64,000 bases of DNA. Origin: a phage. Positions within the stretch are counted from its first letter, which is position 1. Each line of letters starts with the position of its first letter. Positions 8,755 to 41,865 of the stretch are shown in pieces. The notes below the pieces were generated by a model. That model did no database searches, was not told where the DNA came from, and saw only the letters and a list, made by a program, of their open reading frames with translations. A program made the translations under genes and the position numbers. The DNA is taken from sequence record PZ452584.1; one strand, given 5' to 3'.

Positions 8755-8887
8755 TGTTAATAATACCACAGTTTGAACTTCTTGTAAACAACTTTGTGAA
8801 AATTATTTTAGGGAATGATAAGAAGGGAACGATAGCTTAGAATGGTAATATACAGAATGCGAGAAAGAAAGGCCCAGAGGGCCCGTC
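8755..8887 (-). promoter_or_regulatory. PeSL-like unit: terminator hairpin after nrdH followed by early promoter (-35 GTTTAC)
   Basis: Plus-strand gaaaggcccagagggcccgtc hairpin 8867-8887; gtaaacaactttgtgaaaattatttta at 8784-8810 (minus-strand GTTTAC); AT-rich -10 near 8757-8768. Confidence 0.5.
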
Positions 8888-9196
8888 TTAATCTTCTATG
8901 ATATCTCTATCATATCCAAGTGAAATGAGAGTTTCTTTGAAGTGTTTAATGTTCTTTTGTCTAGAATCATTAATGAAAATGACCGGATAACGAATGTTAA
9001 GAGATGTGAATCCAGCGCGTTTAGCAAGAGATACAATCAGCGGACGATCATACTCAATCTTACCGTTATTTGTAAGAACTTTATAGAAAGTAAAAGGAGC
9101 ATTGAGCTCCTTTAGAAGTTTTGTAACTGATTGACATCCAGGACAACGACCTACTTCATCTGGAATTCCATAGACTTCAATCTTATTTTGTTTCAC
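8888..9196 (-). CDS. nrdH: Glutaredoxin-like protein NrdH
   Basis: 102 aa with CPGC redox motif, located next to nrdG/nrdD. Confidence 0.7.
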   Translation of the reverse strand: MKQNKIEVYGIPDEVGRCPGCQSVTKLLKELNAPFTFYKVLTNNGKIEYDRPLIVSLAKRAGFTSLNIRYPVIFINDSRQKNIKHFKETLISLGYDRDIIED

Positions 9197-9198
9197 AA

Positions 9199-9411
9199 CT
9201 ATTCCTTACTAAGAGCAGCATTCAGCTTGTTAGTAATTTTATCCAGACGCTCATTGAACTCACTAGAAGATAAGCCCTTTTCTGGAGAAATCAAACTAAT
9301 TACGAAAAATATAACAATAAAAGGAATAAGGAAAATAGCTCCAACTGCCATGAACAAAAAGAATGTTACAGTTGTAAGAAAATCAGCTAAACCTTTACGA
9401 AATTTATACAT
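9199..9411 (-). CDS. Hypothetical small membrane protein
   Basis: 70 aa with one strongly hydrophobic segment. Confidence 0.4.
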   Translation of the reverse strand: MYKFRKGLADFLTTVTFFLFMAVGAIFLIPFIVIFFVISLISPEKGLSSSEFNERLDKITNKLNAALSKE

Positions 9412-9526
9412 ATTTTACCCTTAATTGATTAACCAAGCATTGATAAGCACTAAACTATATTGCGAATAAAATTCTGGACCAAAATGAAAAATCATATCAT
9501 TTATAGTATCCATAATGTAATTCAAT

Positions 9527-9997
9527 TTAATCATGTTTCCACACCCCATCGGTATTTGACCAAAGTCGCTGATTATCTGATCCTCGCCACAGCTTTTTGG
9601 TCGGAAGATTTTTCTCATACTTCCCATCAATAATAACATCAACATATTTAAGCATTTCTAGTTGTTTAATATCTTCAAACTTATATCCTGTCCACAACCA
9701 AATGCTTTTATTGGGATAAAGATTTTTTACTGTTTGAACAATGCAATGAATAACATCTCGATTGTCAGGATAAAGAGGGTCACCTCCGGTTATAGTTAAT
9801 CCTTCTATATAATCATTATTCAAACATTCAATTAATTGTTCTAGTGTTTCACCAGTGAATGGAATACCATTTCTAGCATTCCATGTTGATTTATTATAAC
9901 ACCCTTCGCATTTATGCAAACAACCTGTAACGAAAAGAACTGTCCTGCATCCAGGACCATTAACAAAGCAGCACGGGTATATTCTGTCATAATTCAT
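9527..9997 (-). CDS. nrdG: Anaerobic ribonucleotide reductase activating protein (radical SAM)
   Basis: MNYDRIYPCCFVNGPGCRTVLFVTGCLHKCEGCYN: CxxxCxxC cluster, 156 aa. Confidence 0.9.
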   Translation of the reverse strand: MNYDRIYPCCFVNGPGCRTVLFVTGCLHKCEGCYNKSTWNARNGIPFTGETLEQLIECLNNDYIEGLTITGGDPLYPDNRDVIHCIVQTVKNLYPNKSIWLWTGYKFEDIKQLEMLKYVDVIIDGKYEKNLPTKKLWRGSDNQRLWSNTDGVWKHD

Positions 9998-10826
9998 TTA
10001 TATATTTCCAATTATAGCCTTCAACACTTTTACGTTCGCCATTTAAACATTTTAAAATATTTCCTTTGCTAGAAATATTAAAATATTTTGCTGCGTCTGG
10101 TATATAATTAAATGTTTTTAAAAGAACACCATCTTTATATGCGCCAAATAAATTAAGAGTATATTTTTCTCGAAGACGCTGATGTTTCCTTTTCATAACC
10201 TCAGGATTTGCATACGCCAACTTCAATGAATTTCTGTGTTTTTCTTTTACTTCAGGTTTTTGCATTGCTAACTTAGTTAGCCTGGAAATTTTATTTCTAA
10301 CTTCGTCAGTTTTCATTGCATTTGACAAATTTAATAAAGTTTTATTTCTAACTTCAGGTTTTTGCATTGCTAACTTAGTTAGTTCTCTATGTCTTTTTCT
10401 AAAATCGTCATCCTTCCATATATTTTTCGATAATTTTGACATAGAGCGGTGAAATAATTCCTTTTCACTGGAATACAATTTAAAAATTTCATCCAATTCA
10501 TCCGCATTAAATCTATCGGTATTCGAGTTTATCATTCTATGAAAGGCATAACACATTTTACTATTGCTTGTTTTAGCTAAATAGTAATGAGCTAACGCAT
10601 GGTCATAATATGACAAATTAACAATATTCCATTTATCTGTTTTATATTCAGGAAATATAGATTTGGGAAGCACGTGATGTGCTTCCGTTTTTCCTTTTAT
10701 TTTAGGATTATTATAATTTTTTGTTATCAAATCAACATATGACAATAGTAAATCATTATTTTCTTCAAATATTAAAGCTAATTTATCATTCACAAAATCG
10801 CAAGGATAAAATCTATCATAATTCAT
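9987..10826 (-). mobile_element. Free-standing HNH homing endonuclease gene (Mob-like), copy 2, inserted between nrdD and nrdG
   Basis: 279 aa; GKTEAHHVLPKSIFPEY motif shared with ORF 1450-2304; first 13 codons (MNYDRFYPCDFVN) duplicate the nrdG N-terminus; perfect 32-bp tandem repeat inside. Confidence 0.65.
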
Positions 10827-15931: not shown

Positions 15932-16984
15932 TTACTTAATTAACTGTAAAGCTTGTTCCAAACTATCAAGACGATTAACAGATTCTTCCCAAATCCTTTT
16001 AGCCTGCTCATATTCTTTCTGCGCTTTATTAGAAATTTCTAGAGCTTCTTTATAAGCTTTTTCTAATGCAATAACTTCTGGACGAATTTCTACCGGTTCA
16101 GGTGAATCATCAAGATTATCCATTAGTTCCTCAAGGGTAGTTTCTTCTTTAGGAGTATTCACAATTTCATCACATTTTTGTTGGTAAATTTCTTTATCAG
16201 TAGGTGAGTACGCGCACTTTACTTCACGAAGACTAATTACAATTTTATATCCTTCCCAGCCGCATATATTCTTAAAAGGATATGTATGAATATTTTCTAC
16301 TGTTTCCATACAAAGTAATGCGGTCTCTAATTGACGAGTTATAGTGCTAGCAATTGAGAAAAATTTATTAATGTTCTTTTGGTTAGTTTCTGGTGTAAAA
16401 AATCCATAATTCACAAAAATAGATACTTTATTTTTATCAAGTTCATATTCTTTTATGATAATCATATCAGAAGCCAAAGGATGAATTTGACGATAATCGC
16501 CATAACATAATTTAGAAGCTGATTTTAGAATCTGTCCTTTGAAAAGTCTGAAATTACTAATCCAACGACGAGTAAAAATATTCTCAGGGTCTTCTTTATT
16601 ATTAAGATGATAAGAATTAACATCACCGAACCAATTATATCCTACTACATCTTTGGTTCGTTTAATTTCTTTCCCAAAATTACCAAGAATATCCCGATTA
16701 ACCAAATATGAAAGAAGACGAGACTCTTTAAAGGTTTTCTTGATAACATCTTTATCTACACGGCTAGAAATTTTACGAATTTCATGAATAAATTTAGTAG
16801 AAGAAACAATACTTGCATCAACACTATTGAGCCATTGATTGATAATAGAAAGAACGATATTTTGACCAAACATCGGTATAGCTTTATCATCAATAACGCT
16901 ATTGAATGATTTGATATATTCGTTACGAGTCATATTAATCTCCTCAGTAGAAAGTAAGAACATTATACCACATCCTTGTGGCAA
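15932..16984 (-). CDS. Hypothetical protein with C-terminal coiled coil (start probably at internal Met near 16933)
   Basis: Promoter-like sequence overlaps the first 17 codons of the track ORF; C-terminus LEKAYKEALEISNKAQKEYEQAKRIWEE... Confidence 0.5.
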   Translation of the reverse strand: MPQGCGIMFLLSTEEINMTRNEYIKSFNSVIDDKAIPMFGQNIVLSIINQWLNSVDASIVSSTKFIHEIRKISSRVDKDVIKKTFKESRLLSYLVNRDILGNFGKEIKRTKDVVGYNWFGDVNSYHLNNKEDPENIFTRRWISNFRLFKGQILKSASKLCYGDYRQIHPLASDMIIIKEYELDKNKVSIFVNYGFFTPETNQKNINKFFSIASTITRQLETALLCMETVENIHTYPFKNICGWEGYKIVISLREVKCAYSPTDKEIYQQKCDEIVNTPKEETTLEELMDNLDDSPEPVEIRPEVIALEKAYKEALEISNKAQKEYEQAKRIWEESVNRLDSLEQALQLIK

Positions 16985-16990
16985 AGTAAA

Positions 16991-18010
16991 CTAGTTCAGT
17001 GCATTTAGTGCATTGTTCAGTTTAGAACGTTGCTTTGTCAGATTTTGAACCCTTGACTGAGCTTGTTCTAACACCTTTTCAGCTTCTAGCACTTCATTGG
17101 TCGCTTTAACGAGTTCATCATCTACTGCCTTAAGAGACTTCTCAATCGCGTCAGCGTGCCATTTTTCTACAGGTTTAAAATTTGAATTTTCAGTAGGAAG
17201 AAAACTCACTTTATTAAGTTTACATGCATCTATATTGCTTGAGCTATACATCCAAAATTTAGGATCGTTTGATAAGTAATTGGATAAATTTAAGTTATCT
17301 TGCACTTCCTGCTTTTTCTCTTGCGGGACTTCGTCCTTTCTCAAAAAATCGTATTTAAATGAAACGATCATATCAAGTTCATATGATGTTGTATCTAACT
17401 TAAATCGTTCAAAACGAGGTAAAATCTTAGATTGAACAGCAGCAACAACATCCATATACTTAAATGCTTCTGTCAATTGTGATTTAAGGCATTCACAAAT
17501 TGAAAGAGAATTTTTTGTATTAGGTTTAAAGCTAATTCGTGCAGTTCTATTATTTTCTTTTAACGGTCTTACTTCCATCTGAAGAGTATAACCATCAAAT
17601 TTCAGGTTCTTTAAGTTAATATCAGAGCCTTTTAATCGACTAGCAGTAGACAAAATTTGCTTTAATTGTCTACGGAACAGAGCAATAAATCTCCATTCAA
17701 TACGATAATGATTTGGATTGAAAAATCCAGATGATAAATCGACCTTACTTTGACCAACGCCTTGAACAAATAGAGGATTTTTATAATCAATAGTTTTACA
17801 GAAATCGGTGAGCTGCTCACGAGCAGTTATTTGTGTAATATACCCCGCTTTACTAAAATGACGTAACCATTCACTGTTGTTCATATATTTAAAGTGAATA
17901 TCACGATTAACTTTATCAGGGTCTAAATTATTTTGGCACAAAAATGTCATAACATCACGAGTATAGCTGGCATTACGAACCATATCTTCAATTTGAGAAC
18001 GAGTTTTCAT
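16991..18010 (-). CDS. Hypothetical protein with C-terminal coiled coil
   Basis: 339 aa; C-terminus ...EVLEAEKVLEQAQSRVQNLTKQRSKLNNALNALN. Confidence 0.5.
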   Translation of the reverse strand: MKTRSQIEDMVRNASYTRDVMTFLCQNNLDPDKVNRDIHFKYMNNSEWLRHFSKAGYITQITAREQLTDFCKTIDYKNPLFVQGVGQSKVDLSSGFFNPNHYRIEWRFIALFRRQLKQILSTASRLKGSDINLKNLKFDGYTLQMEVRPLKENNRTARISFKPNTKNSLSICECLKSQLTEAFKYMDVVAAVQSKILPRFERFKLDTTSYELDMIVSFKYDFLRKDEVPQEKKQEVQDNLNLSNYLSNDPKFWMYSSSNIDACKLNKVSFLPTENSNFKPVEKWHADAIEKSLKAVDDELVKATNEVLEAEKVLEQAQSRVQNLTKQRSKLNNALNALN

Positions 18011-19901: not shown

Positions 19902-19924
19902 TTTCTGTTCCTCCGTAGTTGATA

Positions 19925-19960
19925 GTTGTATAGTACCACAGAGGAACGGTCTTGTAAACA
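19925..19960 (-). promoter_or_regulatory. Early promoter-like element (-35 GTTTAC, -10 region within tatagtaccacag)
   Basis: Plus-strand gttgatagttgtatagtaccacag...cttgtaaaca; same motif recurs at 21365, 26000, 37440. Confidence 0.5.
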
Positions 19961-19961
19961 A

Positions 19962-20276
19962 CTAAAAGAAACTTCTTTCACAATTTTTTCCACTGAACCA
20001 AGCGCTCACTGCTTTCTTAGTCTCAGGAGCAGTATTATCCATAAACCATTCAAAGGCAGCCTTTTTATGATTCTGGAGGGCTTCTCGGGCTTTAATCTGC
20101 TCACGGTCTATTAACACTAACATATGAGCCTTTCTTGTCACCAGGGGCTTCTTATGATTTTTTGAATATTCCCAATCATTTGTCCATCGCATCGTTGTTG
20201 CGAATTGAAGTACAGCTTCTTTAATCTTAGTTTCGTAAATTTCACGAGCCTTTGAGTATAACATCATTACCTCCAT
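19962..20276 (-). CDS. Hypothetical protein
   Basis: Track ORF. Confidence 0.4.
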   Translation of the reverse strand: MEVMMLYSKAREIYETKIKEAVLQFATTMRWTNDWEYSKNHKKPLVTRKAHMLVLIDREQIKAREALQNHKKAAFEWFMDNTAPETKKAVSAWFSGKNCERSFF

Positions 20277-21347: not shown

Positions 21348-21364
21348 ATCCGTATCAGTTGATA

Positions 21365-21452
21365 GTTGTATAGTACCATAAAGCTTTATGCTTGTAAACA
21401 GTTTTGTGAAAAAATTTTTGAAATAAAAAGGGGGACCTCTAGGGCCCCCTTT
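21365..21452 (-). promoter_or_regulatory. PeSL-like unit: terminator hairpin plus early promoter
   Basis: aaaagggggacctctagggccccc hairpin 21427-21452 preceded on plus strand by gtaaacagttttgtgaaaaaatttttgaaat and tatagtaccat. Confidence 0.55.
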
Positions 21453-21458
21453 ATGCTT

Positions 21459-21944
21459 TTATTCCATTTCTATTATATGCATGTTCTTTTTGCTATCAAA
21501 ATATATGTTTTTAACTGTTAACTCCGAATTAATTGGCAATAAAAACTCTCTTTCATAATCTACCATACAAAGGTTATCATAAAGCTTGTTAAGCTTATCA
21601 TCGTCAGTTTGGCCAGATTCTTCAATTGCGATTAAATTTTCTAAAATGTCAATCATAGCAGTCGAATAGTCAAAAACGTTTGCATTTTTTAACACTACTA
21701 AAACATTAGTCATATAGCGTTCTGCAGCAAACGTTTCAGCTATATGAGACTCACTGCTAAAGGAAGTTATTCTTTTAAATTTGATTCTCCTATTAACTTC
21801 AAACTTATAAGATAGTACTTCCTCTATTGTAAGTCCTCTAAAAAGCACGTCTTTAATCTCAAGTTTGTCTTTAATGTAATCATTAACACGCTTATGATTA
21901 AAATCATTAATTTTGTTGCCAAGGCATTTCATTAAAATATGCAT
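21459..21944 (-). CDS. Hypothetical protein in PeSL-flanked cassette; candidate ADP-ribosyltransferase-like fold (motif-level only)
   Basis: Track ORF 21459-21974 (TTG start) trimmed to first ATG; FRG ... ITSFSSES ... YEREFLLP motifs in R-S-ExE order. Confidence 0.45.
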   Translation of the reverse strand: MHILMKCLGNKINDFNHKRVNDYIKDKLEIKDVLFRGLTIEEVLSYKFEVNRRIKFKRITSFSSESHIAETFAAERYMTNVLVVLKNANVFDYSTAMIDILENLIAIEESGQTDDDKLNKLYDNLCMVDYEREFLLPINSELTVKNIYFDSKKNMHIIEME

Positions 21945-21989
21945 TGTGTTTCTCTTCAATTTTTTAAAGAACAATTAATTAACTACAAA

Positions 21990-22071
21990 TATATTATAAT
22001 ATGCTTTATGATAGAAGTAAACAACTTTGTGAAAAATTTTTGAAATAAAAAGGGAGCCCGAAGGCTCCCTA
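21990..22071 (-). promoter_or_regulatory. PeSL-like unit: terminator hairpin plus early promoter (-35 GTTTAC, -10 TATAAT)
   Basis: gtaaacaactttgtgaaaaatttttgaaataaaaagggagcccgaaggctccc; minus strand reads GTTTAC-18nt-TATAAT. Confidence 0.55.
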
Positions 22072-23085
22072 TCATTTATAATAACTTCGGTGGTTTTCAA
22101 GATACACCTTCTCAAGGAAGTCATCCCAGAAACCCATGTCTACTTTTTGCTGCATACCGTTCTTAGAAGCTTCAGTAGATGCTGCTTCTACTTGATCGAC
22201 CACATCTTCCAAAAACTCTTGAACTGTTTTAAATGGATGCTTACCCAACTTCACGTCGAGAATAAATGGAGCATCTTGGAGTGGATAAACCAAGTCACCA
22301 GTTTTGTAAATTTCCAATAGTTGGAGTCCACCACGACAAGCATGACTCAGAGCTTTCCAGTCAATACCTTCATTGGCTTCGGCCTTACGAGCACGTTCAC
22401 CGTATTCAGCATCAAGTTTATTCAAAGACTGCTTAAGCTCAATAAGAGAAAGCGTTGTCTGATATTTACGACCCAACACAGTGTAGAACGTTTGTGGGCC
22501 TGTTTTCTCATGATTATGGAACACCCATTCACAGAATTCGTTTTCTGGAAGACGATGCTTAATATCTTCAACTTTAGTACGACGCTGCTTAATGGAACCG
22601 TCTTCTTGGTAATCAACCCATTGCTCAGGGATTTGATTAACTACTTTCAATACATCGCGTAATGCAGCCAAACGAGAACCCTTGACACCGTATTTAGAAG
22701 CTTGCTTGCGAACATATCCTAAATAAGATTTCATGTTAGTCGTATAAAAACGAGAACGGTTGTCTTGAATAAACTTCCACACATCAGGCAAATCAGATTT
22801 AACCACTAATTCAGGTGGAGTGTGAAGCATATCCAATGCTACAGTTTCACCATCTGCTGCTAATTTAAAGAAATACTTAAGACTATACAATTCGTGGTCA
22901 ATATCATCTTTAGTGTTTTTAGATGATGTGTTGTTGGTGTTTTTACTCATGTGCTCTTTGACATTTCCGATAAGAATATCGCGAGCAGGAGGAACAAAAA
23001 TTTCTTTAAAATCTACATCAGATTCTGGGGTAGAAGTTCCATAAAGATGACTACCAAAATAGCTTTTCATTACTGTTTTCATCAT
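22072..23085 (-). CDS. Pol-beta-superfamily nucleotidyltransferase-like protein
   Basis: N-terminal YFGSHLYGTSTPESDVDFKEIF matches GS-x(9-13)-DxD nucleotidyltransferase signature; 337 aa. Confidence 0.5.
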   Translation of the reverse strand: MMKTVMKSYFGSHLYGTSTPESDVDFKEIFVPPARDILIGNVKEHMSKNTNNTSSKNTKDDIDHELYSLKYFFKLAADGETVALDMLHTPPELVVKSDLPDVWKFIQDNRSRFYTTNMKSYLGYVRKQASKYGVKGSRLAALRDVLKVVNQIPEQWVDYQEDGSIKQRRTKVEDIKHRLPENEFCEWVFHNHEKTGPQTFYTVLGRKYQTTLSLIELKQSLNKLDAEYGERARKAEANEGIDWKALSHACRGGLQLLEIYKTGDLVYPLQDAPFILDVKLGKHPFKTVQEFLEDVVDQVEAASTEASKNGMQQKVDMGFWDDFLEKVYLENHRSYYK

Positions 23086-23203
23086 TCAGCCTTATATTCA
23101 ATAACAGGACATACTTTAGCTTTACGGGCTTTTAAAAATTCGACGATAATAGATTTCTTGGGTTGAATAGGAGGTAAACCTTTATACGCCCTATCAATAT
23201 TTT

Positions 23204-23542
23204 CTACATGTAAAGCATAATCCTTTTCCATTTATAATCTTTATATTTTTCATGCAGTTGTGCAGGAATAACAAATGAACCGATAATAAGTAAAACAAGC
23301 AAAATGGCAAGTATAAATGCTGATGGAATAAGAGTCCATAAACTACCAAAAATAAGCCATTTCTGTATGATTTCTGCACAGATGATAGTTAGCCCTACGA
23401 GTATAGCACATCCGAAAAAAGAAACGAAAAATGTAGGAATAACAATAGACCAAAAATATGCACATAGTGTCTTAGGTCGTTGCCATTCATCGTTAAACAA
23501 TTTGAATAATTTATAGTGCCAAGAGTTTTCATTAATAATCAT
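23204..23542 (-). CDS. Hypothetical membrane protein
   Basis: 112 aa, several hydrophobic helices. Confidence 0.4.
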   Translation of the reverse strand: MIINENSWHYKLFKLFNDEWQRPKTLCAYFWSIVIPTFFVSFFGCAILVGLTIICAEIIQKWLIFGSLWTLIPSAFILAILLVLLIIGSFVIPAQLHEKYKDYKWKRIMLYM

Positions 23543-23544
23543 AA

Positions 23545-24066
23545 TTATCCTTTCATTGAAGGCGTAACGGTTGTTAAATATTTAATCATAGCTTCAGCTT
23601 CTGATTTTGATAATGAAATTTCTCCATTGTTTTGACGAATAGAAATAAAATCCGGATGACGGTCACCACCAGCTTTTAAAACACACATATAAGTATCAAC
23701 TTCGCCTTCAATATTTGAAATGATTGAAGCAGTTCCACATGAATGCGGTTTTTGATAAATCAACACAGCTTTTCTTCCGCCATTTGACTGCTCATAGGCT
23801 TTTAATACATCAAGCAAATCAGTTCTTTTATCAATAGCTAAAATGTTATTTTCATCTTCAATGTTAAATCCTTCGGATACTTCATAAAGCGTTACCCATA
23901 AATCACCAATGTCAATAACAGCATTTACTTTTCCACGGCTTTCAAGAGTATGACAAATTTTCTTGATTTCGTCATAACTCATTTTAATAATATCATCTCC
24001 TTGACTAAGAAAGATGTCATTTTTAAATTCAACACGAATTAAACCGCTTCCACTTGAAATAAACAT
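23545..24066 (-). CDS. Hypothetical protein (paralog-like with 24073-24627)
   Basis: C-terminus ...SEAEAMIKYLTTVTPSMKG resembles neighbour's ...DEAIALKTYLDSVIPTMISK. Confidence 0.45.
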   Translation of the reverse strand: MFISSGSGLIRVEFKNDIFLSQGDDIIKMSYDEIKKICHTLESRGKVNAVIDIGDLWVTLYEVSEGFNIEDENNILAIDKRTDLLDVLKAYEQSNGGRKAVLIYQKPHSCGTASIISNIEGEVDTYMCVLKAGGDRHPDFISIRQNNGEISLSKSEAEAMIKYLTTVTPSMKG

Positions 24067-25061: not shown

Positions 25062-25388
25062 TACATACTCCTCTGAATCATATCAATAATATTGTTCACC
25101 AGATTATAAGTAAACATTGGGTAATTATATTGAATCATCACATACACAACAAACAAAACTTTCATTCTCTTCTCCTTGGCAGTTGACAAGATTACTATAC
25201 CATAACCTTGCCAACTTGTAAACCATTAAATGACGTTTTCAATAAAATTCTGGAGTTTTGTGTGAGCATCAACCATGATTTTCATTTCTTCCTTTGCGAA
25301 AGCTATGCCTCTTTCCCGAGAAGAACACTCATAGTCAGAAACTGCATTAGCATATTCTTCAATTAGCTTCATTAAAAACATCTGCTTT

Positions 25389-25585: not shown

Positions 25586-25825
25586 TTAAACTCTCGTATT
25601 ATGATCGATAATTTCATCAAGAAACATATCTAACGCTTCTAAAGCATTATCAACTTTAGCTTCAAATTCATCAATGCCTTTATTTGCAATGCCTGACGAA
25701 AACCAAGCAAAGTCACTAAGTTCCTCGTCTGCTTTACGAATTAAAGCTACTAATTCCTTAATTTTATCCGCTTGTTCGATACTAATCATTATTCCACCAC
25801 ATATGAAAGAGAGAATATTGCACAC
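25586..25825 (-). CDS. Hypothetical small protein
   Basis: Track ORF. Confidence 0.3.
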
Positions 25826-26022
25826 GCCATGTGAGTTGCAGCTTCATCACACATATTATAACGTTTCTTAAGAAGTTCTACAAGTTCTTCACTAGTAACT
25901 TCATCCATGTCGACGAAAAAATCACCATTAATGATGACGTAGATATTTCCTTCTTGATTGAGTGCTTCAATTTTCATGATGTTCTCCTCTTTATCCGATA
26001 GTTGTATAGTACCACAGCTCAA
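25789..26022 (-). CDS. Hypothetical small protein (start probably internal)
   Basis: Track ORF; first codons overlap the promoter at 26000-26035. Confidence 0.3.
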
Positions 26023-26068
26023 ACGGAAAGTAAACCGGTAAAATGAAAAAAGTCTCCCGAAGGAGACT
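26000..26068 (-). promoter_or_regulatory. PeSL-like unit: terminator hairpin plus early promoter
   Basis: gttgtatagtaccacag...gtaaaccggtaaaatgaaaaaagtctcccgaaggagact. Confidence 0.5.
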
Positions 26069-29809: not shown

Positions 29810-29860
29810 TCTCCTCTTAACTGATAGAAAAATTATACCACAGTCAAGAGGAAAAGTAAA
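29810..29860 (-). promoter_or_regulatory. Early promoter-like element upstream of regB
   Basis: ttataccacag...gaaaagtaaacag: minus-strand GTTTAC -35 with AT-rich -10. Confidence 0.4.
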
Positions 29861-29863
29861 CAG

Positions 29864-30184
29864 TTATTCTTTAAATCTGATCAATTTATTCATAGACTTT
29901 GAAACTTCTGCACGAACCTCATGTAGATTTTTGAGCTGTTCAAGACGCTGCGCATAGTAAGCAATTTCATCTTCTTCGAGACAGTCCTGCGAATCTTCTT
30001 TAAGATAGCGTGCATAATCCTGGAAAGCATTACGAATTACTTCTTGGAAGTCATCAAGACTTTGAATTTTCTTAGGAGCGGCAGATACACGACGAGGTGC
30101 AGTATAATACTCATAACCAAACCCTGCGCTTAATTGAGCCATTAGTATTTTTCCTCTGGTTGGAACACAGCACGGCAAGCCCAC
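29864..30184 (-). CDS. Hypothetical protein (vs.3 position)
   Basis: Track ORF. Confidence 0.35.
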
Positions 30185-30444: not shown

Positions 30445-30622
30445 CTAAACGAATAGGTTCATGAATGCCATATCCCTGAACAGAAATTTCTGTAGTAGGA
30501 TAAATTCCATTAATATCACCCATGTTCCATGCTTCGTTAAATTGCTGTTCGCCTGAATTACTAAACCATTCGGCAAAAGCATTTAGCACATCTTCAGAAC
30601 CTTCAATAATTATCTTTGCCAT
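30401..30622 (-). CDS. Hypothetical small protein
   Basis: Track ORF. Confidence 0.3.
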   Translation of the reverse strand: MAKIIIEGSEDVLNAFAEWFSNSGEQQFNEAWNMGDINGIYPTTEISVQGYGIHEPIRLVEYDLCTGEEVKYD

Positions 30623-30983
30623 TACAAACTTTCAGTAAAGGTACGAGCGATAACGTCGCGCTGCTGTTCCGGAGTCAGAGAGTTAAAGCGAACTGCATAA
30701 CCGGATACACGGATGGTCAGCTGCGGATATTTTTCCGGATGCTTAACTGCATCTTCCAGAGTTTCACGACGCAGAACGTTAACGTTCAGGTGTTGACCAC
30801 CTTCAATTTTAACTGTAGGCTGTGGCTCAATTTCAATTTCACGGGCATGCAAACCATAGAAAATTTCCGGGTCTACAAAAGAGTCCTCTTTAAAGGTTTA
30901 GAAACGATAATTCGTGCTTGAATACCATCTTCAAAATAAATAGTACCTTTATGTGTGCCTTCAAGAATTTGATATGCTTTCAT
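30622..30983 (-). pseudogene. GrcA/YfiD-like autonomous glycyl-radical cofactor gene, reading frame broken once
   Basis: C-terminal frame encodes ...[63 protein letters not shown]; a different frame from ATG at 30981-30983 encodes [30 protein letters not shown] then stops; one extra base at gtttctaaaccttta would join them. Confidence 0.5.
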
Positions 30984-30990
30984 ATAAACC

Positions 30991-32359: not shown

Positions 32360-32410
32360 CCCTCCAAGTAATTATGAATATACTATCACAATTCTAGGAG
32401 AAAGTAAACT
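32360..32410 (-). promoter_or_regulatory. Early promoter-like element upstream of denV
   Basis: atgaatatactatcacaattctaggagaaagtaaactg; near-identical copy at 33390-33445. Confidence 0.4.
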
Positions 32411-32411
32411 G

Positions 32412-32714
32412 TTATTTACCTTTAATTACTTTAGCTGCTTCGATAGCCGCTTGCTGAAGGTCATCCATAGACATACCGAATTTAGAAGCAAAGTTATCAA
32501 TTTTCTTTTCGACAGCATTCAAAGGCTTGGCCTGTTTACCTTCATTAGCGCCAGGAAGAGCGAGAATACGCTCTTTGTCAATATAAAGGCTTACAAGTTT
32601 CTTACGGTCTTTATCGGACAAATCATGAAATGAATGGGCCTTTTTATTTATAGCGGCTTCTAATTTACCTGCACTCACTCGCGCTTCAGTAATAAATTCT
32701 TGATATGTTTTCAT
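32412..32714 (-). CDS. ipII: Internal head protein IPII
   Basis: 100 aa with capsid-targeting leader MKTYQEFITEA. Confidence 0.85.
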   Translation of the reverse strand: MKTYQEFITEARVSAGKLEAAINKKAHSFHDLSDKDRKKLVSLYIDKERILALPGANEGKQAKPLNAVEKKIDNFASKFGMSMDDLQQAAIEAAKVIKGK

Positions 32715-32755
32715 ATGTTTCCTTTAAATGTAAATAGGTCTGAGTATTAGCTTTA

Positions 32756-33352
32756 TTAGGAATTACGGGCTGCATTAGCAACGGCGTAAGCGTACTGAAC
32801 ATTAGCGTCTTTAAACTTACCTTTAGAGGTATCTATTTCTGCCTTAAAGCCACCTTTAGTCATAACATCGGCAAATTCTTTACGGAAAGCCATTGCATCA
32901 AGACCTTTCCATGATGATTTATGCTTGGCAAATTCAAGACCTGCGAAGTTGACAGCTTTAGCCAATTTATTATCAATGACCCATTTACCGGCTTTAGGCA
33001 CAAACTTCGGGCCTTTCTGTTTAGAGAACAGTTTTAAATTCCAGCGGCGAAGGTCACTGTCGGCTTTAACAAAAGCTGCGTCTAAGTTACTAGCAACAAC
33101 ATCTTCAATATGAGCAAATTTAAGTCCGTCAACTTCAATATTTAAATCGGTACGCCAGCGAAGTCCTTCCCAAGCGAAGGCTTTAAAGTCGGAAGCCTTT
33201 GTAGCTAAGTACCGTTCAATAGGAGCTGTTTTAGGGTCAAAGCCGTTTCCTGGGCGGTCAACACCATTTCCTCGGTAGGTCCACTCATCTTTGTTAATGC
33301 CTTTGGCCTTTACTACAGAAGCTTCGGCAATAAATTCTTGATATGTTTTCAT
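32756..33352 (-). CDS. ipIII: Internal head protein IPIII
   Basis: 198 aa with leader MKTYQEFIAEA. Confidence 0.85.
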   Translation of the reverse strand: MKTYQEFIAEASVVKAKGINKDEWTYRGNGVDRPGNGFDPKTAPIERYLATKASDFKAFAWEGLRWRTDLNIEVDGLKFAHIEDVVASNLDAAFVKADSDLRRWNLKLFSKQKGPKFVPKAGKWVIDNKLAKAVNFAGLEFAKHKSSWKGLDAMAFRKEFADVMTKGGFKAEIDTSKGKFKDANVQYAYAVANAARNS

Positions 33353-33389: not shown

Positions 33390-33445
33390 GTCTATTCAAG
33401 TAATTGTGAATATACTATCACAGTTCCAAGAGAAAGTAAACAACT
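33390..33445 (-). promoter_or_regulatory. Early promoter-like element upstream of e
   Basis: gtgaatatactatcacagttccaagagaaagtaaacaactttatag. Confidence 0.4.
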
Positions 33446-34414
<969 letters not shown>

Positions 34415-34433: not shown

Positions 34434-34903
34434 TCAGTGATAAAGTTATTTAAATTTTGAGCATATTTCTTTTCATCAAAAATCTTTTGCTGTCTGCGTA
34501 AACGCCATGGCATTTCAATGAACATACGCCATATTCCTGATAATACTGCTGCTGTAAAAATATTAACAAGTATAGTTAAAAGAATCCAATCGCCTATTCT
34601 GTCCATTGGATTTTTTATAAAAAAGTAAAATACGAATGATGATATAGGAAGACTAATGATATACCACAGAAGAACCTTCTTATCTGTGAACCAATCAGCA
34701 TTTGTTAACTTAGCGCGACCATTTTGAATACACACGAATTTATCATCTGTTACAGTAAATGGCTTAGCTGCTTGATATCCCATTCTAAACTCCCTAATTA
34801 ATCGTTTCTTTGTATCTTCGGAACAACCATTCCAGTCAACTCTATCAACTGAAATGCCATCATCCCCATCATCTAAATCATACCAGCGAGTTTTTAAAAT
34901 CAT
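34415..34903 (-). CDS. Hypothetical membrane protein (family of three tandem ORFs)
   Basis: Hydrophobic helices; ends ...FITECRKLK with stop overlapping the next start. Confidence 0.4.
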
Positions 34904-36848: not shown

Positions 36849-37137
36849 AGTATTTCCTTAGGTTAATTAAGATTTAAAATCCATGAGAGTATTATACTCC
36901 GGATAGTTTGTAAACTATTTCAACATCGTCTTTTGCTGCTTTATAACCTTCAGCCCAAGATACAACCGAGTTTTTATCTGAAGATTCAAATTCTGGCATT
37001 GGGCTTTCGCCAATGTTCACGCAGTGTGTTTCTTCATTTTCGTCAAACCAAATAATTAAAGTAGTCATTTATTTCTCCGTTTTCTGTATTTGTTTTGATA
37101 AGTCTATAATAACACCGTCCTTGGTGTTTGTACACAA

Positions 37138-37413
37138 TTATTTCATATTATTGAAATATTCTTCTGCGATTTCATCGTTATCATGGTAAACTTTAGAAGA
37201 CAGTTTAACATAACCTTCAGCAGTGAACATGTTAATCACAACCTTTACAGTATACCACTGACCGTCTTCATTACCCATTACTGCGTAAGTTTCAAACATC
37301 GGATGATCAGGACCGATAACTTTAATATCATTCACTGTACGACCAAAATCTTCTGAAACACATTTCATAAAGAAGTTGAACAGTTCGCCGTAATTATCCA
37401 TTTCATTCTCCAA
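37138..37413 (-). CDS. Hypothetical protein (e.8 position)
   Basis: Likely start MDNYGELF preceded by GGAG; downstream of the promoter at 37440-37475. Confidence 0.4.
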   Translation of the reverse strand: MENEMDNYGELFNFFMKCVSEDFGRTVNDIKVIGPDHPMFETYAVMGNEDGQWYTVKVVINMFTAEGYVKLSSKVYHDNDEIAEEYFNNMK

Positions 37414-37439
37414 GTTGTTTTCTGTATCAGTAGTTGATA

Positions 37440-37475
37440 GTTGTATAGTACCATGGAAGAACAGGGATGTAAACA
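37440..37475 (-). promoter_or_regulatory. Early promoter-like element (-35 GTTTAC)
   Basis: gttgatagttgtatagtaccatgg...gatgtaaacagttttgtgaaaaaaaaaaatttt. Confidence 0.5.
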
Positions 37476-37610
37476 GTTTTGTGAAAAAAAAAAATTTTTA
37501 AAGGTTTTGGGGAATTCTAGGGCAGGGAGGGGAAATCAAAGGATAGGATAATATATTATAAAGGATAGAAACTAAATGATGCCTAGAGAGGCCTGGAAAG
37601 GCCTAGATAC

Positions 37611-37640
37611 CAAAAAATCCCTATCATTTAGATAGGGATT
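37611..37640 (-). terminator. Rho-independent terminator after the IP-like gene
   Basis: Minus strand reads aaatccctatctaaatgatagggattttttgg: 8-bp stem followed by T6. Confidence 0.55.
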
Positions 37641-37645
37641 TAAAA

Positions 37646-38209
37646 TTATTTACCCAGTTTAGTTATTATAGCTTCGGCAGCAGCTTTTAGCTTAGATGCA
37701 GTGTTAATACGATTTTTAATTTCAGTATACGCATCGCCAAGAACATCAAGGCTGTCAGAATAAACACTTACACTATTGCGTTCGCTATTTGAAATAGAAC
37801 CTTTAGTTTTACGATCAAAATCGGTGTACACGTCTTGAAGATCGCGGGCTGCCTTCTTTGCATCATCCAATGCATCAAGAGCTTTATTCAAAGCATTGAC
37901 ATATTTTTTAGTGTCAAACATATTCTTAGAAATTTTAACAGGTGCACGTTCAGGAGTAGCTAAGGCAGATTTAGGAACCTGAGCGCCTGATGCTAATTTC
38001 TTAGAAATTTTGAAAAATGCTTTATTGAATTTATTTTCTTGACTCATCGTAAAAGAACTATTATCAATGTTATACATTTCAATAGCTTTAGCTTTCCACT
38101 TAAGAAAATCGCCCCGGTCTTTTGGGTCCAAGTGGAAGAATACTTTAGTAAGATCTGTTTCAGATGGTAATTTTGCTGCTTCGGTTAAAAATTCGGCATA
38201 GGTTTTCAT
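37646..38209 (-). CDS. Internal-protein-like capsid-targeted protein (novel IP family member)
   Basis: 187 aa beginning MKTYAEFLTEA, same leader pattern as IPII/IPIII with L-x-E cleavage context; rest unlike IPII/IPIII. Confidence 0.55.
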   Translation of the reverse strand: MKTYAEFLTEAAKLPSETDLTKVFFHLDPKDRGDFLKWKAKAIEMYNIDNSSFTMSQENKFNKAFFKISKKLASGAQVPKSALATPERAPVKISKNMFDTKKYVNALNKALDALDDAKKAARDLQDVYTDFDRKTKGSISNSERNSVSVYSDSLDVLGDAYTEIKNRINTASKLKAAAEAIITKLGK

Positions 38210-38295: not shown

Positions 38296-38322
38296 AACTA
38301 AAAAGCCCCAACCTTTCGGTCG
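38296..38322 (-). terminator. Rho-independent terminator ending the tRNA/stable-RNA transcription unit
   Basis: Minus strand reads agccccgaccgaaaggttggggctttttag. Confidence 0.55.
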
Positions 38323-38643
38323 GGGCTAAGCCTTGCGGCAACCTTGTCGGGGTTCCACCTGCTAAGGCAAGTGTTTGTACGAAACGCCGGGATTTGAACC
38401 CGGTTATTAAGTAGTTGACGCTACTCAATATTTTTAAAAGGCCATATCTCAACCATATCCGAACGTTCCGTCAAAAACGCTACTCGGCTTACGGCAAAGA
38501 TATTTCCTCGAATCGATAATTCGGTGCGCCGTTTCTGCTGTGATATAAGGGGGCATTAATAAAACATAAAGATTTATTAATGCCAGTCCTTAAACAGGGA
38601 GCATCAGTCCGACGACTTACCGGTAGCGACCCGGTTTCTTGTT
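38323..38643 (-). ncRNA. Stable small RNA region (position of T4 RNA C / RNA D); boundaries approximate
   Basis: About 320 nt non-coding between tRNA-Arg and terminator; contains a tRNA-like T-arm (ccgggttcaaatcccgg on minus strand). Confidence 0.35.
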
Positions 38644-38723: not shown

Positions 38724-39389
38724 TTAAAATTTCATTTTTCGACCTTTAAACCATCCTTCTGGAATTGGGTCAGTTTTCTTAATACGTTTAGAAACTTTTT
38801 CATCTAATGAATGAATCCACATCATACCAAATTGGGAATTCTTTTCACCTTGTTGGTGTTTATTTCTGGCGTGAGATTCTTTCATTTTATTAATAGTTTC
38901 AGGAGTATGGGTCTTACCCAAGAAAGATTTAGTATTTAAAAATTTCTCTCTATACTTAGGATTATCCCAAAGCTGTTTAAACCTTTCTGAACCCATTTTA
39001 CGATATTTTTCTTTAAGGTCTAGGTCGTTCTCAAATCTGGTTTTAAAAGCAGCAGCCCCTTTTAAGGAAGCTTCTTTCTTTTTATCCAAATATTCTTTAG
39101 TGTTTAAATGGTCCCAACCACCTTCACCACCTAATTTCAAATTATAAACATCAGGGCGCTTTAAAAACTCTTCAGTCACAATATTCTTTTCTGACTCAAA
39201 CATAGAGGTTTTATCGTCAAAGAACTCTAATATTTCTTTAGAGAAATTTTCTATACCATACTTGTCTTGGGCTCTTTTTAATAATTTACCAGAACCCATA
39301 TATCCATCATCTAAATTTTCGGTAGAATGAGCGCCTATATAGATTTTATTATTAATTTTATTTGTTATTTTATAAGTGTAATGGAACAT
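38724..39389 (-). mobile_element. segB: GIY-YIG homing endonuclease SegB within the tRNA cluster
   Basis: MFHYTYKITNKINNKIYIGAHST... GIY-YIG motifs; placed between tRNA-Arg and the seven-tRNA block as in T4. Confidence 0.8.
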
Positions 39390-40002: not shown

Positions 40003-40088
40003 ATTATTAACAAAGGCTCTCTAACAAGAACCCTTGATGATAGAGGGTATTAATCAGTGCGGTATGAGTTAATAATAACAAATAATTC

Positions 40089-40604: not shown

Positions 40605-40894
40605 TTGCTCACCATATTAATGTAAGTATATTTAATACATTCAAGACCCAAAGGATTCTTGAAAATATCATATTCAAGAGGACCTTTTTCTGTTTCAATA
40701 AAGAAATCAAAATTTACTGTATTAAATTTACGGTCTTCCTTCAATAATTTAACCTGAGAAGATGAACGGTCAACATAAACCTTTTCAACTTCAAAACATG
40801 TTAAAACGCCATAATCATCAATCAAGGCTTTAGCCGCGTCTTGATCATATTTATATCCATTTTCAATGGACGATACTTTAGCATAAAGAATCAT
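40601..40894 (-). CDS. Hypothetical protein
   Basis: 97-aa track ORF, stop/start coupled to neighbours. Confidence 0.4.
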   Translation of the reverse strand: MILYAKVSSIENGYKYDQDAAKALIDDYGVLTCFEVEKVYVDRSSSQVKLLKEDRKFNTVNFDFFIETEKGPLEYDIFKNPLGLECIKYTYINMVSK

Positions 40895-40897
40895 TAT

Positions 40898-41317
40898 TTA
40901 CCCTTCATCAACAATAGTATGAGTGTGGGCATTTACAATTTGCCACCAATCAAAGCGATTAGAACCATACATTGGTTTGTTCTCATTTTCTTTGATAATG
41001 TTACGGAGTTCATCTTCGGTAGCGGCTTTCGCGATTAAATCAGCATATCCACCGCGAGGATAATAATTATCACCTGCAAAAAGTAAAAAGTTCGGTTTAA
41101 TATTATTGAACTCTTCAAGAGTAATAACTTTTCCTGTCGGTTGAACAATCTCTACATATTTATATCCTAATTTTTGAGCAGCATCTACTGCTTCAAGCAA
41201 AGTATCATGAGCCCATCCAATTTGACAACCTGGCTTTTCAGATGGATTAGCCTGATAATCCGCGTACACTTTATACATTCTATTCACCTTTAGAAATTTT
41301 ATCCATAACGATAGCAA
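40898..41317 (-). CDS. Hypothetical protein (start probably internal, MYKVYADYQ)
   Basis: Track ORF. Confidence 0.4.
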   Translation of the reverse strand: MLSLWIKFLKVNRMYKVYADYQANPSEKPGCQIGWAHDTLLEAVDAAQKLGYKYVEIVQPTGKVITLEEFNNIKPNFLLFAGDNYYPRGGYADLIAKAATEDELRNIIKENENKPMYGSNRFDWWQIVNAHTHTIVDEG

Positions 41318-41465
41318 TTAAACCAATTAAAAATGCTACTACAAGTGAAAACACATTTTCTGCTGTAGTCAATAATCCGCATATAAATCCAACAAACATT
41401 GAAAAACTAAAAGCAGAAGCAGAAATTGCAATAGCAACATTTCGAATTAATTCACAACGTTTCAT
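41280..41465 (-). CDS. Hypothetical small membrane protein
   Basis: 61 aa, two hydrophobic segments. Confidence 0.35.
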   Translation of the reverse strand: MKRCELIRNVAIAISASAFSFSMFVGFICGLLTTAENVFSLVVAFLIGLIAIVMDKISKGE

Positions 41466-41525
41466 TTTATTCTCCTCAGTAGTTGATAGGGTAATAGTAT
41501 CACTACTAAAACCCTATGTAAACAA
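41466..41525 (-). promoter_or_regulatory. PeSL-like early promoter with inverted repeat around the -10 region
   Basis: gatagggtaatagtatcactactaaaaccctatgtaaacaactttgtgaaattatttt: 7-bp stem atagggt/accctat flanking taatagtatcact; minus-strand GTTTAC -35. Confidence 0.55.
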
Positions 41526-41535
41526 CTTTGTGAAA

Positions 41536-41793
41536 TTATTTTAAATCTTCTAATCGTTTCTTCATCTTAGAACCATTTTTAGCGATTTCTCCTGCATCGG
41601 AGCATAATGCTAAAAGAGCTTTAACTTTAGTTTGGTCTCCTTTAAAAGATGAAGGATCGACTGCAGCAGCAAGTTCTTTAATACGAGAAAAAAGACGCTC
41701 AGCTTCAGCTAAAGCCATTCCAAGTTTTACTTCCATACCGTGGGAAGATTCAGTGATAGTAGTTTTTGTAGCAAACTCTTTGAAAGTTTTCAT
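41536..41793 (-). CDS. Internal-protein-like small protein at the ipI locus (sequence differs from T4 IPI as I recall it)
   Basis: 85 aa, leader-like MKTFKEFATKTTITE then helical body; bracketed by two near-identical promoter units. Confidence 0.5.
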   Translation of the reverse strand: MKTFKEFATKTTITESSHGMEVKLGMALAEAERLFSRIKELAAAVDPSSFKGDQTKVKALLALCSDAGEIAKNGSKMKKRLEDLK

Positions 41794-41799
41794 TTTATT

Positions 41800-41860
41800 T
41801 TCCTAATTAATTTTGATGAGGTAATAGTATCACTACCTCATCAGCATGTAAACAACTTTG
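41800..41860 (-). promoter_or_regulatory. PeSL-like early promoter with inverted repeat around the -10 region
   Basis: tgatgaggtaatagtatcactacctcatcagcatgtaaacaactttgtgaaattatttt: 9-bp stem tgatgaggt/acctcatca with same loop as the 41466 copy. Confidence 0.55.
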
Positions 41861-41865
41861 TGAAA

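Follow-up and report, generated by a model that had tools for sequence, protein, structure and literature searches.

Do the promoter-like motifs that recur along one stretch of phage DNA mark the boundaries of exchanged gene cassettes? The window that we analyzed is a stretch of 64,000 nucleotides from a Tequatrovirus (T4/T2/PST-like) genome (sequence record PZ452584.1). From about 33.5 kb on, it is collinear with T4. Across the collinear blocks of the window, its identity to T4, T2, and PST is 95–98%, and the part that aligns with PST is about 95% identical. The original prediction was that 11 copies of a motif, each with a GTTTAC −35 element, a conserved −10 region, and usually an adjacent GC hairpin, delimit recently exchanged genes. 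We consider it likely that the repeats are T4-type early promoters, and that three pairs of them secondarily serve gene exchange. Both ideas are already known: the motif is a textbook T4 early promoter, and papers from 2010 and 2014 have proposed the role in shuffling, in part from work on PST.

We compared orthologous units across six relatives (T4, PST, T2, ACG-C40, TB004, and Ec_MI-02), and we looked for indel or replacement breakpoints in 10 relatives, four of which are partial. The gene list was curated by hand from the table of open reading frames and the annotations of T4, PST, and T2, and it replaces rough automatic gene calling.

The repeats match the early promoters of T4

The search pattern suggested along with the original prediction is close to the published consensus for the early-promoter/stem-loop (PeSL) units of PST and T4, which is TTTACW-N17-TAYWAT (PMC4122927). 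Running the search bore the suggestion out: GTTTAC-N18-TAnnAT has 15 matches in the window, all of them on the minus (coding) strand, versus 0.37 ± 0.6 expected by chance (from shuffled sequences). Three of the matches (8339, 13702, and 25110), all inside genes, were rejected as look-alikes. All 11 of the sites that had been listed carry the motif, at most 9 nt from the position given. On the plus strand, the corresponding GTAAAC is at 8784, 19954, 21394, 22017, 26030, 29856, 32404, 33436, 37469, 41518, and 41848, and we refer to the units by these positions. Eight of the listed positions were exact, and three had to be shifted (from 29850 to 29856, from 32395 to 32404, and from 33437 to 33436). 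The list was also incomplete, as it missed a strong site at 16986 and weaker sites at 25218 and 37130 (GTGTAC). The 11 listed sites and 16986 make up the 12 strong units.

Using a position weight matrix that was built from the sites themselves, we found 14 minus-strand matches of over 20 bits in the window and no plus-strand match of over 14 bits. In the six relatives, the matrix finds 11–14 matches per ~49 kb, on the coding strand every time. The early region (45 kb) contains 12–14 units; where the window carries late genes, there are none. A generic scan for sigma-70 promoters was uninformative because the genome is AT-rich (111 sites were found versus 89 expected, and 79 versus 74).

In all 12 strong units, the gap between GTTTAC and TAnnAT is 18 nt (a sigma-70 spacing of 17 nt if counted from TTTACW). 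The −10 box has the form TA(C/T/G)(T/A)AT, and an extended −10 element (TGn) is present at the end of the spacer in 11 of the 12. Upstream of GTTTAC there are conserved A/T-rich columns that resemble an UP element; in six units, this region is TTTCACAAA(G/A)(T/C)T. All 12 strong units are intergenic, with a start codon 45–100 nt downstream of the G of the −35 element. The repeated 18-mer GTAAACAACTTTGTGAAA, which had been put forward as the common motif, is present with up to three mismatches at 6 of the 11 listed sites (8784, 21394, 22017, 37469, 41518, and 41848). The other five have just the −35, TGn, and −10 elements in common. Both of the −10 regions quoted for the family do occur, TGTGGTACTATA at 19954 and 26030 and ATGGTACTATA at 21394 and 37469, while the −10 region of 41518 and 41848 is AGTGATACTATTA.

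Wherever one of the six relatives has the downstream gene of a unit, it also has the unit in front of that gene. Compilations of the early promoters of T4 (Pe) are attributed to Wilkens and Rueger and to Miller et al. 2003. GTTTAC at −36 to −31 is the −35 region of these promoters (PMC1524935), which are of the UP/−35/TGn/−10 type (Hinton 2010, PMC2988021). Our units likewise have GTTTAC, TGn, TAnnAT, and an AT-rich upstream region, and they lie on the early-gene strand, ahead of early genes. In T4, the sequence at the orthologous sites is the same (with the G of GTTTAC at 41706, 50973, 53943, 55384, 58780, 62797, 65413, 66498, 70696, 73572, and 73939). Relative to T4, there is one extra unit in the window (22017), which arrived with an ADP-ribosyltransferase-like cassette that T4 lacks. 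Also, the spacer of the denV unit is 18 nt instead of 17 nt; otherwise, nothing of substance differs. Given the published T4 consensus and this orthology, the units are predicted to be active as promoters: the host's sigma-70 RNA polymerase would read them immediately after infection, and each would head an immediate-early transcription unit. The T4 record (AF158101) has only CDS and RNA features and no promoter annotation, and a search of the available papers for a dataset of T4 transcription start sites found none. An Rfam scan reported tRNAs only, with no RNA family overlapping any unit.

We also considered whether the motif could be a MotA-dependent middle promoter, a gp55-dependent late promoter, or a chance or compositional repeat. 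The sequence refutes this explanation, which has almost no chance of being correct, and we found no point in its support. Neither the MotA box (TGCTT) nor the late-promoter motif TATAAATA is present in any of the 12 strong units, TGn is found in 11 of them, and both the excess over the shuffled expectation and the complete strand bias argue against chance.

Table 1. Putative early promoter units and cassette cargo in the window. Bit scores are from the weight matrix; breakpoints are from the comparison with 10 relatives.
Feature	Position	Strand	Details
Early promoter unit, gene 55.6	8753–8814	−	GTAAAC 8784–8789; −10 TATTAT 8760–8765; 18-mer UP/−35 motif; 40–45 bits in six relatives; no indel breakpoint in 10 relatives
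Early promoter unit, nrdC.4	16955–17016	−	GTAAAC 16986–16991, overlapping the nrdC.5 stop codon; 31 bits; kept in 5/5 relatives with nrdC.4; no breakpoint
Early promoter unit, nrdC.8	19923–19984	−	Weight-matrix match, conserved; no breakpoint
Early promoter unit, nrdC.10, with GC terminator hairpin (21431–21449) of the cassette ORF	21363–21449	−	
Cargo: 161-aa homolog of Alt/Mod-type ADP-ribosyltransferases	21459–21944	−	phrog_832, E = 1.2e-23
Early promoter unit, ADP-ribosyltransferase-like ORF, with GC terminator hairpin (22051–22070) after nrdC.11	21986–22070	−	
Weaker early-promoter-like unit, mobD.2	25187–25248	−	GTTTAC ... TATAGT, 23 bits; 22–23 bits in 6/6 relatives
Early promoter unit, mobD.5	25999–26068	−	GC terminator hairpin 26051–26068 directly upstream; no breakpoint
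Early promoter unit, regB	29825–29886	−	33 bits in six of six relatives; no breakpoint
Early promoter unit, denV	32373–32434	−	Downstream edge of ipII+ipIII cassette; breakpoint at 32409
Cargo: ipII (32412–32714) and ipIII (32756–33337)	32412–33337	−	phrog_7857, phrog_5341
Early promoter unit, ipIII	33405–33466	−	Upstream edge of ipII+ipIII cassette
Weaker unit, variable ORF at e.7 position (36892–37068)	37099–37160	−	GTGTAC (37130) ... TATTAT, 20 bits; breakpoints at 37088 and 37139
Early promoter unit, e.8	37438–37499	−	18-mer motif with two mismatches; closest breakpoint at 37616, at a hairpin outside the promoter
Early promoter unit, trna.4	41487–41548	−	Downstream edge of IP slot
Cargo: Ip5-type internal head protein, 85 aa	41536–41793	−	phrog_3499, E = 1e-49
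Early promoter unit, IP gene	41817–41878	−	Upstream edge of IP slot

Three pairs of units flank variable genes

The claim that the units mark cassette boundaries held for three pairs (21394/22017, 32404/33436, and 41518/41848) but not for the family as a whole. The segments that these pairs flank are missing or replaced in relatives, and at the first two pairs, what is left is one clean chimera of the units in the window. The cargo ORFs were identified by comparison to PHROGs, as searching them against Pfam gave nothing usable.

The first pair encloses an ADP-ribosyltransferase-like ORF, with 21394 as the downstream boundary and 22017 as the upstream boundary of the cassette. The ORF is in 44 phage records (about 9% of Tequatrovirus records), versus 508 for its neighbor nrdC.10, and it is missing from T4, PST, and Ec_MI-02. 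Relative to these three phages and to three metagenomic phage contigs from IMG/VR, the window has an insertion at 21433–22003, with a 50-bp overlap of its ends. The lone unit of T4 and PST is a chimera, with the hairpin of 22017 and the spacer, −10 box, and leader of 21394; the switch lies inside a common TTTTTATTTCAAAAATTTTTCACAAA..GTTTAC stretch. In all three of the carriers that we sampled, the cassette is between nrdC.10 and nrdC.11, and we looked for it in other genomic contexts in these carriers and saw none. Thus, we have no evidence of the cassette moving to another promoter unit, as a mini-circle model would allow.

The best cassette, which the original prediction did not name, is ipII+ipIII, between 32404 and 33436. 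Ec_MI-02, T2, ACG-C40, L005, and L026 either lack these two genes or have others in their place. The two units are identical at 41 of 45 nt, and the e/denV junction of Ec_MI-02, which has neither ipII nor ipIII, has a single chimeric unit with a 45-bp overlap.

At the internal head protein (IP) slot, units 41518 and 41848 have an exact 32-nt repeat in common. The Ip5-type gene between them is in 252 records, versus 561 for its neighbor 57B. The slot contains ipI in T4, ipVI+ipV in PST, and ip7+ip5 in T2: the repeated units of relatives enclose a single IP gene, a pair, or different IP genes, with overlaps of 24–84 bp.

Four ORFs had been proposed as exchanged cargo. Two of them, at 21459–21944 and 41536–41793, are variable across relatives and have promoter repeats on both flanks, as proposed. 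The record counts went against the other two: mobD.5 (25789–25977; 501 records) and e.8 (37138–37401; 528 records) are conserved and about as common as their core neighbors, which by the standard set in the original prediction refutes it for these two genes.

The units are alike over 25–45 nt, so two that point the same way can function as short direct repeats. Homologous recombination by the phage could delete, insert, or swap the segment between two units, and we infer that such recombination is what caused the indels. The signature expected of such exchange is present at three loci (nrdC.10/nrdC.11, denV/ipII-ipIII/e, and trna.4/IP/57B), and the remaining six strong units would simply be conserved promoters. 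That the homology between units is only 25–45 nt is a point against a role in exchange.

Are breakpoints concentrated at the units?

Another explanation is that the units are promoters only and play no causal role in exchange. They would be alike because of selection for strong binding of RNA polymerase; accessory genes need a promoter of their own, and in a hyperplastic region, indels hit gene boundaries anyway. Several results fit this explanation. Within this already hyperplastic region, we found no significant enrichment of breakpoints at promoter junctions (7 of 12, versus 36 of 83 other junctions, or 95 in all; one-sided Fisher test, p = 0.25; p = 0.36 if only gaps of at least 30 nt are considered). 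The number of distinct breakpoints per junction was higher for promoter junctions (1.17 versus 0.48; Mann-Whitney p = 0.043), but the excess shrinks if breakpoints are counted per kb of junction span (6.3 versus 4.7). Just 9 of the 69 distinct breakpoints lie inside a promoter unit, and most of the region's indels are at the 36 promoter-less junctions that have breakpoints. Conversely, five strong units (8784, 16986, 19954, 26030, and 29856) have no indel or replacement breakpoint in the 10 relatives. Also, each promoter goes with its downstream gene, and mobD.5 and e.8 lie behind strong units yet are present in essentially all relatives.

Nevertheless, we think it unlikely that the units are promoters only. 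The junctions that lack a cassette are precise chimeras that switch within the shared 40–45 nt; ends joined at random between genes would not restore one intact unit. Furthermore, the longest end-overlaps of all the events (45–84 bp) fall at promoter pairs. These features are those expected if, as we favor, early promoters were secondarily used for exchange at three loci.

Might the units instead be the termini of a dedicated mobile element, or sites at which a homing endonuclease or site-specific recombinase acts to move the cassettes? The region is rich in homing-endonuclease genes, which are involved in several of the indels. This explanation is highly improbable. None of the three cassettes encodes a recombinase or an endonuclease, and 6 of the 12 strong units are never the site of an event. 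The crossover zones are also unlike: they are in the UP/−35 region at nrdC.10/nrdC.11 and at the IP locus, and between −35 and +8 at the denV/ipIII pair.

Relation to published PeSL cassettes

PeSL cassettes have been described in phi1 and RB49 (Arbiol et al. 2010, PMC2839356) and in PST/T4 and nt-1/KVP40 (Comeau et al. 2014, PMC4122927), and the published model predicts the picture of chimeras and cassettes that we observed. As in PeSLs, the order of elements is the upstream stop codon, an AT-rich region, the early promoter, the Shine-Dalgarno sequence, and the start codon. Eleven of the 12 strong units conform to the PST/T4 consensus (16986 has a G at the W position); stem-loops, where present, lie just upstream of the promoter or around the −10 box. 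The repeats are numerous, and most are in hyperplastic regions, ahead of small uncharacterized ORFs. Pairs of units at three loci (six units) flank ORFs that differ among relatives, and a genome without the ORF keeps a single chimera. A difference from the published PeSLs is that the upstream stem-loop of the PST drawing occurs in just 3 of the 12 units; for half of the units, we saw no link to exchange. Both mini-circles and the terminator activity of the stem-loops were demonstrated experimentally for phi1/RB49 only (PMC2839356).

The IP locus is a historical example that the PeSL authors themselves cite (PMC4122927), and the polymorphism of the IP loci in T-even phages is attributed there to Repoila et al. 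1994. We see the same phenomenon, with ipI, ip5, ipVI+ipV, or ip7+ip5 at one locus and ipII/ipIII versus ipIV or none at the other, in slots whose flanking sequences are conserved. The alleles in the window are Ip5 alone and ipII+ipIII, respectively.

The analysis yields a clean map of the predicted promoters in the early region of this genome and three clear promoter-flanked accessory cassettes (the Alt/Mod-like ADP-ribosyltransferase and the two internal-head-protein slots). Genes of both kinds could plausibly function in host takeover or against defenses. Because the units are not detectably richer in breakpoints than other junctions in the hyperplastic region, the association of PeSLs with exchange should be tested against a null model of gene boundaries.

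Stem-loops in and beside the units

The prediction that the motif usually adjoins a GC hairpin was too broad: a terminator-like GC hairpin with a run of T's lies directly upstream at just three sites (21394, 22017, and 26030). These three units would be composites of the upstream gene's intrinsic terminator and a promoter, i.e., the published PeSLs. For 8784, there is a GC hairpin ~85 nt upstream, and for 37469, an AT-rich hairpin ~140 nt upstream. At 19954, 29856, 32404, 41518, and 41848, a stem-loop encloses the −10 box and is more stable than in controls with shuffled spacers. The stem-loop at 16986 is small, and we saw no convincing one at 8784, 33436, or 37469. Overall, about 8 of the 12 strong units have a stem-loop in or next to the unit by the broad definition of 2010, versus 3 of 12 by the PST drawing of 2014.

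In the nrdC.8 unit (19954), the spacer between −35 and −10 pairs with the leader and the Shine-Dalgarno sequence in a 13-bp stem (z = −3.7 and −4.7). The stem in the regB unit (29856) is between the spacer and the Shine-Dalgarno region (z = −4.8), and the weaker mobD.2 unit (25218) has a 15-bp stem around its −10 box (z = −3.4). Among 34 distinct units, drawn from seven genomes, z falls below −3 for 11 when shuffling is limited to the spacer.

We tentatively suggest, with more doubt than confidence, that the stem-loops around the −10 box could serve as translational or transcriptional insulators in many units. The 5′ arm would be in the untranscribed −35/−10 spacer and the 3′ arm in the leader, so the hairpin would form on read-through RNA from upstream promoters and, at nrdC.8, regB, and denV, would bury the Shine-Dalgarno sequence. 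RNA from the unit's own promoter would lack the 5′ arm and stay open. The gene would then depend on its own promoter alone for expression, and the promoter-gene module, no longer tied to its context, would be easy to shuffle. The principle of an insulating hairpin is already known in T4 (for example, at genes e, 49, and soc). Since stem-loops over the −10 box have already been described for PeSLs, only the generality of the arrangement would be new.

The T4 denV unit has the same stem architecture, with other arm sequences. At the IP locus, the hairpin has two variants, which are out of register in the alignment.

Genomic setting

In a Megablast search of a phage collection, two parts of the window matched Tequatrovirus records by the hundreds at 95-97% identity, among them T2, ACG-C40, PST, and TB004, and local blastn placed the start of collinearity with T4 (AF158101) about 33.5 kb into the window. 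Up to about 45.3 kb, the minus strand is the coding strand (gene 46 to gene 4); the plus strand takes over from there, with late genes 53, 5, and those after them. Given this layout and the collinearity with T4, 8755-41865 is the classical early "hyperplastic" region; it spans 55.x, nrdC.x, mobD.x, tk, vs.x, IP (internal head protein), e.x, and the tRNAs, up to ipI.

The repeats match T4 early promoters

The original prediction described a family of 11 promoter/stem-loop repeats in this region. All 11 sites are present, with three coordinates shifted by 1-9 nt (to 29856, 32404, and 33436), and the list lacked one strong site (16986) and two weaker ones (25218 and 37130). We name each unit by the plus-strand position at which GTAAAC starts. 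The pattern GTTTAC-N18-TAnnAT has 15 matches, exclusively on the minus strand, as compared to 0.37 +/- 0.60 expected from dinucleotide shuffles. (Pattern matches at 8339, 13702, and 25110 are look-alikes situated within ORFs.) We also trained a weight matrix on 12 sites; with each site left out of its own scoring, the sites scored 15-37 bits. A scan of the window with this matrix gave 14 minus-strand matches above 20 bits and no plus-strand match above even 14 bits. Two details of the predicted motif did not survive: the 18-mer GTAAACAACTTTGTGAAA occurs at only six sites, even with up to three mismatches, and a GC-rich hairpin with a T-run, said to be a usual neighbor, lies directly upstream of only three units (see table).

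Alignment of the units gives the consensus (A/T-rich)-TTTCACAAAgtt-GTTTAC-N14-tGTGg-TAcTAT-acaacTATCaacTa. The spacing between these elements is invariant among the strong units, TGn is present in 11 of the 12, and none of the 12 contains a MotA box or the late TATAAATA. The strong units are all intergenic, with the -35 element 2-170 nt past the upstream stop codon (at 16986, the stop overlaps the -35) and the start codon 45-100 nt downstream from the G of GTTTAC. This architecture is shared with published T4 early promoters: GTTTAC occupies positions -36 to -31 in the consensus for T4 early promoters (Nolan et al., PMC1524935), which have been characterized as UP/-35/TGn/-10 promoters (Hinton, PMC2988021).

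The sites are also conserved. In T4, PST, T2, ACG-C40, TB004, and Ec_MI-02, an equivalent site lies at equal distance before each of the downstream genes that the genome has; the sole miss in these six relatives was nrdC.10 in TB004. (The T4 denV unit, which has a 17-nt spacer, was recovered by a pattern scan.) Per 49 kb, the relatives have 11-14 of these sites, all of them on the coding strand, and the orthologous sites in T4 are at 41.7, 51.0, 53.9, 55.4, 58.8, 62.8, 65.4, 66.5, 70.7, 73.6, and 73.9 kb. Overall, these repeats are real and highly non-random, and they represent the known set of early promoters in a T2/T4-like phage; the match to the T4 consensus and the orthology suggest that the units are active as promoters. 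Behind the -10 box, three units have the leader motif CTATCAACTAC, which stretches the similarity to about +25; near-copies are found at units 21394 and 26030.

Locations of the features discussed in the text
Feature	Position	Strand	Remark
Strong promoter units	8784, 16986, 19954, 21394, 22017, 26030, 29856, 32404, 33436, 37469, 41518, 41848	-	
Units with stem-loop around -10 box	19954, 25218, 29856, 32404, 41518, 41848		also in units of L001, L035, L036, L037
GC terminator hairpins	21431-21449; 22051-22070; 26051-26068		directly upstream of units
Leader motif	19915-19925; 37430-37440; 41479-41489	-	
ADP-ribosyltransferase homologue	21459-21944	-	named cargo
Ip5-type gene	41536-41793		named cargo
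mobD.5	25789-25977		named cargo
e.8	37138-37401		named cargo
ORF at e.7 position	36892-37068		
187-aa ORF	37646-38209		phrog_2280
Hairpins flanking 187-aa insertion	37615-37641; 38304-38327		not promoter units
Insertions without flanking promoters	10001-10787; 34444-34900		overlapping ends
Homing-endonuclease-type	1450-2304	-	phrog_655; between genes 46 and 46.1
Homing-endonuclease-type	3745-4368	-	weak GIY-YIG match; between 47 and 47.1
Homing-endonuclease-type	9987-10826	-	mobC-like
Homing-endonuclease-type	38724-39389	-	segB
vs.6 and ORF095-like	30622-30984; 23082-23545	-	one base missing vs PST

Three loci have a recombination signature

The claim that such units mark cassette boundaries is the published promoter-early stem-loop (PeSL) hypothesis (Arbiol et al., PMC2839356; Comeau et al., PMC4122927). 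Comeau and colleagues worked with PST, a close relative of the window, and cited the IP locus as a historical precedent. The signature that the PeSL model describes is seen at three loci in the window.

Between nrdC.10 and nrdC.11, a 486-nt ORF lies between units 21394 and 22017 in the window, T2, and ACG-C40. In T4, PST, Ec_MI-02, and three metagenome-derived (IMG/VR) phages, 570 bp are missing, and on the other genome there is a 50-bp overlap between the gap's two ends. The single unit of T4 and PST is a chimera: its terminator hairpin is that of unit 22017, its spacer, -10, and leader are those of unit 21394, and the switch is inside the common TTTTTATTTCAAAAATTTTTCACAAA..GTTTAC stretch.

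At denV/ipII-ipIII/e, units 32404 and 33436 are identical at 41 of 45 positions from -35 to +8. The 987 bp between them are missing in Ec_MI-02 and in another relative (L026), with a 45-bp overlap, and the e/denV unit of Ec_MI-02 has the upstream half of 33436 and the downstream half of 32404.

At trna.4/IP/57B, units 41518 and 41848 have an exact 32-mer in common (GATTTAAAATAATTTCACAAAGTTGTTTACAT), which takes in the final codons of each of the two upstream genes. The slot holds ipI in T4, ipVI+ipV in PST, ip7+ip5 in T2, and Ip5 only in the window; the joints have overlaps of 24-84 bp.

The family as a whole does not mark cassette boundaries

We aligned positions 1-46000 of the window to six full-length relatives and four IMG/VR loci, chained the collinear matches, and recorded all gaps of at least 60 nt as events, which yielded 69 distinct breakpoints across the 10 relatives. 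A curated list of 96 genes provided 95 junctions, and a breakpoint was counted if it was within 40 nt. Breakpoints were near 7 of 12 promoter-bearing junctions versus 36 of 83 others, which is not a significant enrichment (one-sided Fisher p = 0.25), nor was there one among junctions with gaps of at least 30 nt (7/12 versus 10/22, p = 0.36). Junctions with a promoter did have more distinct breakpoints each (1.17 versus 0.48, Mann-Whitney p = 0.043); normalized to junction span, the two classes differed little (6.3 versus 4.7 per kb). Just nine of the 69 breakpoints were inside promoter units, all of them confined to the three loci, and five units (8784, 16986, 19954, 26030, and 29856) had no indel or replacement event in any of the 10 relatives. 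Many events were elsewhere, at homing-endonuclease-type genes, the nrdD intron, and small promoter-less ORFs. Because of these breakpoint counts, the lack of enrichment, and the event-free units, the cassette reading does not hold for the family, but it convincingly fits six of the 12 units, at three loci, and two of the four genes that had been named as cargo.

Promoter units are not alone in having short direct repeats at the ends of indels, because the insertions of a mobC-like gene (44-bp end overlap relative to T2) and an e.2-like ORF (30-bp end overlap relative to PST and T2) overlap as well.

Cargo genes

The two cargo genes that fit are variable. The 486-nt ORF was found in 44 phage records, versus 508 for nrdC.10; among Tequatrovirus records, only about 9% have it, T2 included. 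Its 161-aa product is a homologue of the Alt/ModA/ModB ADP-ribosyltransferases (phrog_832, E = 1e-23); it is unrecognised by Pfam. The location is identical in three sampled carriers; this is a presence/absence polymorphism and not evidence for movement between units. The gene for the Ip5-type internal head protein was found in 252 records, versus 561 for 57B.

The other two are conserved: mobD.5 in 501 records and e.8 in 528. (The end originally predicted for mobD.5, 26022, is the start of the longest ORF.) It is the neighbors of e.8 that vary, namely the ORF at the e.7 position and a 187-aa ORF, which is an insertion relative to T4, PST, T2, and ACG-C40.

Stem-loops that enclose the -10 box

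Several units fold so that the untranscribed -35/-10 spacer holds the 5' arm and the leader, past the -10 box, holds the 3' arm. Of 34 distinct units (window plus six relatives), 11 had z under -3 and 15 had z under -2 when compared with shuffles of the spacer only. The Shine-Dalgarno sequence falls within the 3' arm at nrdC.8, regB, and denV, and the T4 denV unit has an equal architecture with different arms. The stem-loop might be an insulator that silences read-through transcripts.

Other genes

The homing-endonuclease-type genes explain several indels relative to T4, PST, and T2. T4's nrdD intron with I-TevII, mobB, and mobD are absent from the window. The reading frames of vs.6 (GrcA-like) and the ORF095-like gene are broken because each has one base fewer than its PST orthologue; the genes are true pseudogenes, or else the missing bases are sequencing errors in homopolymers.
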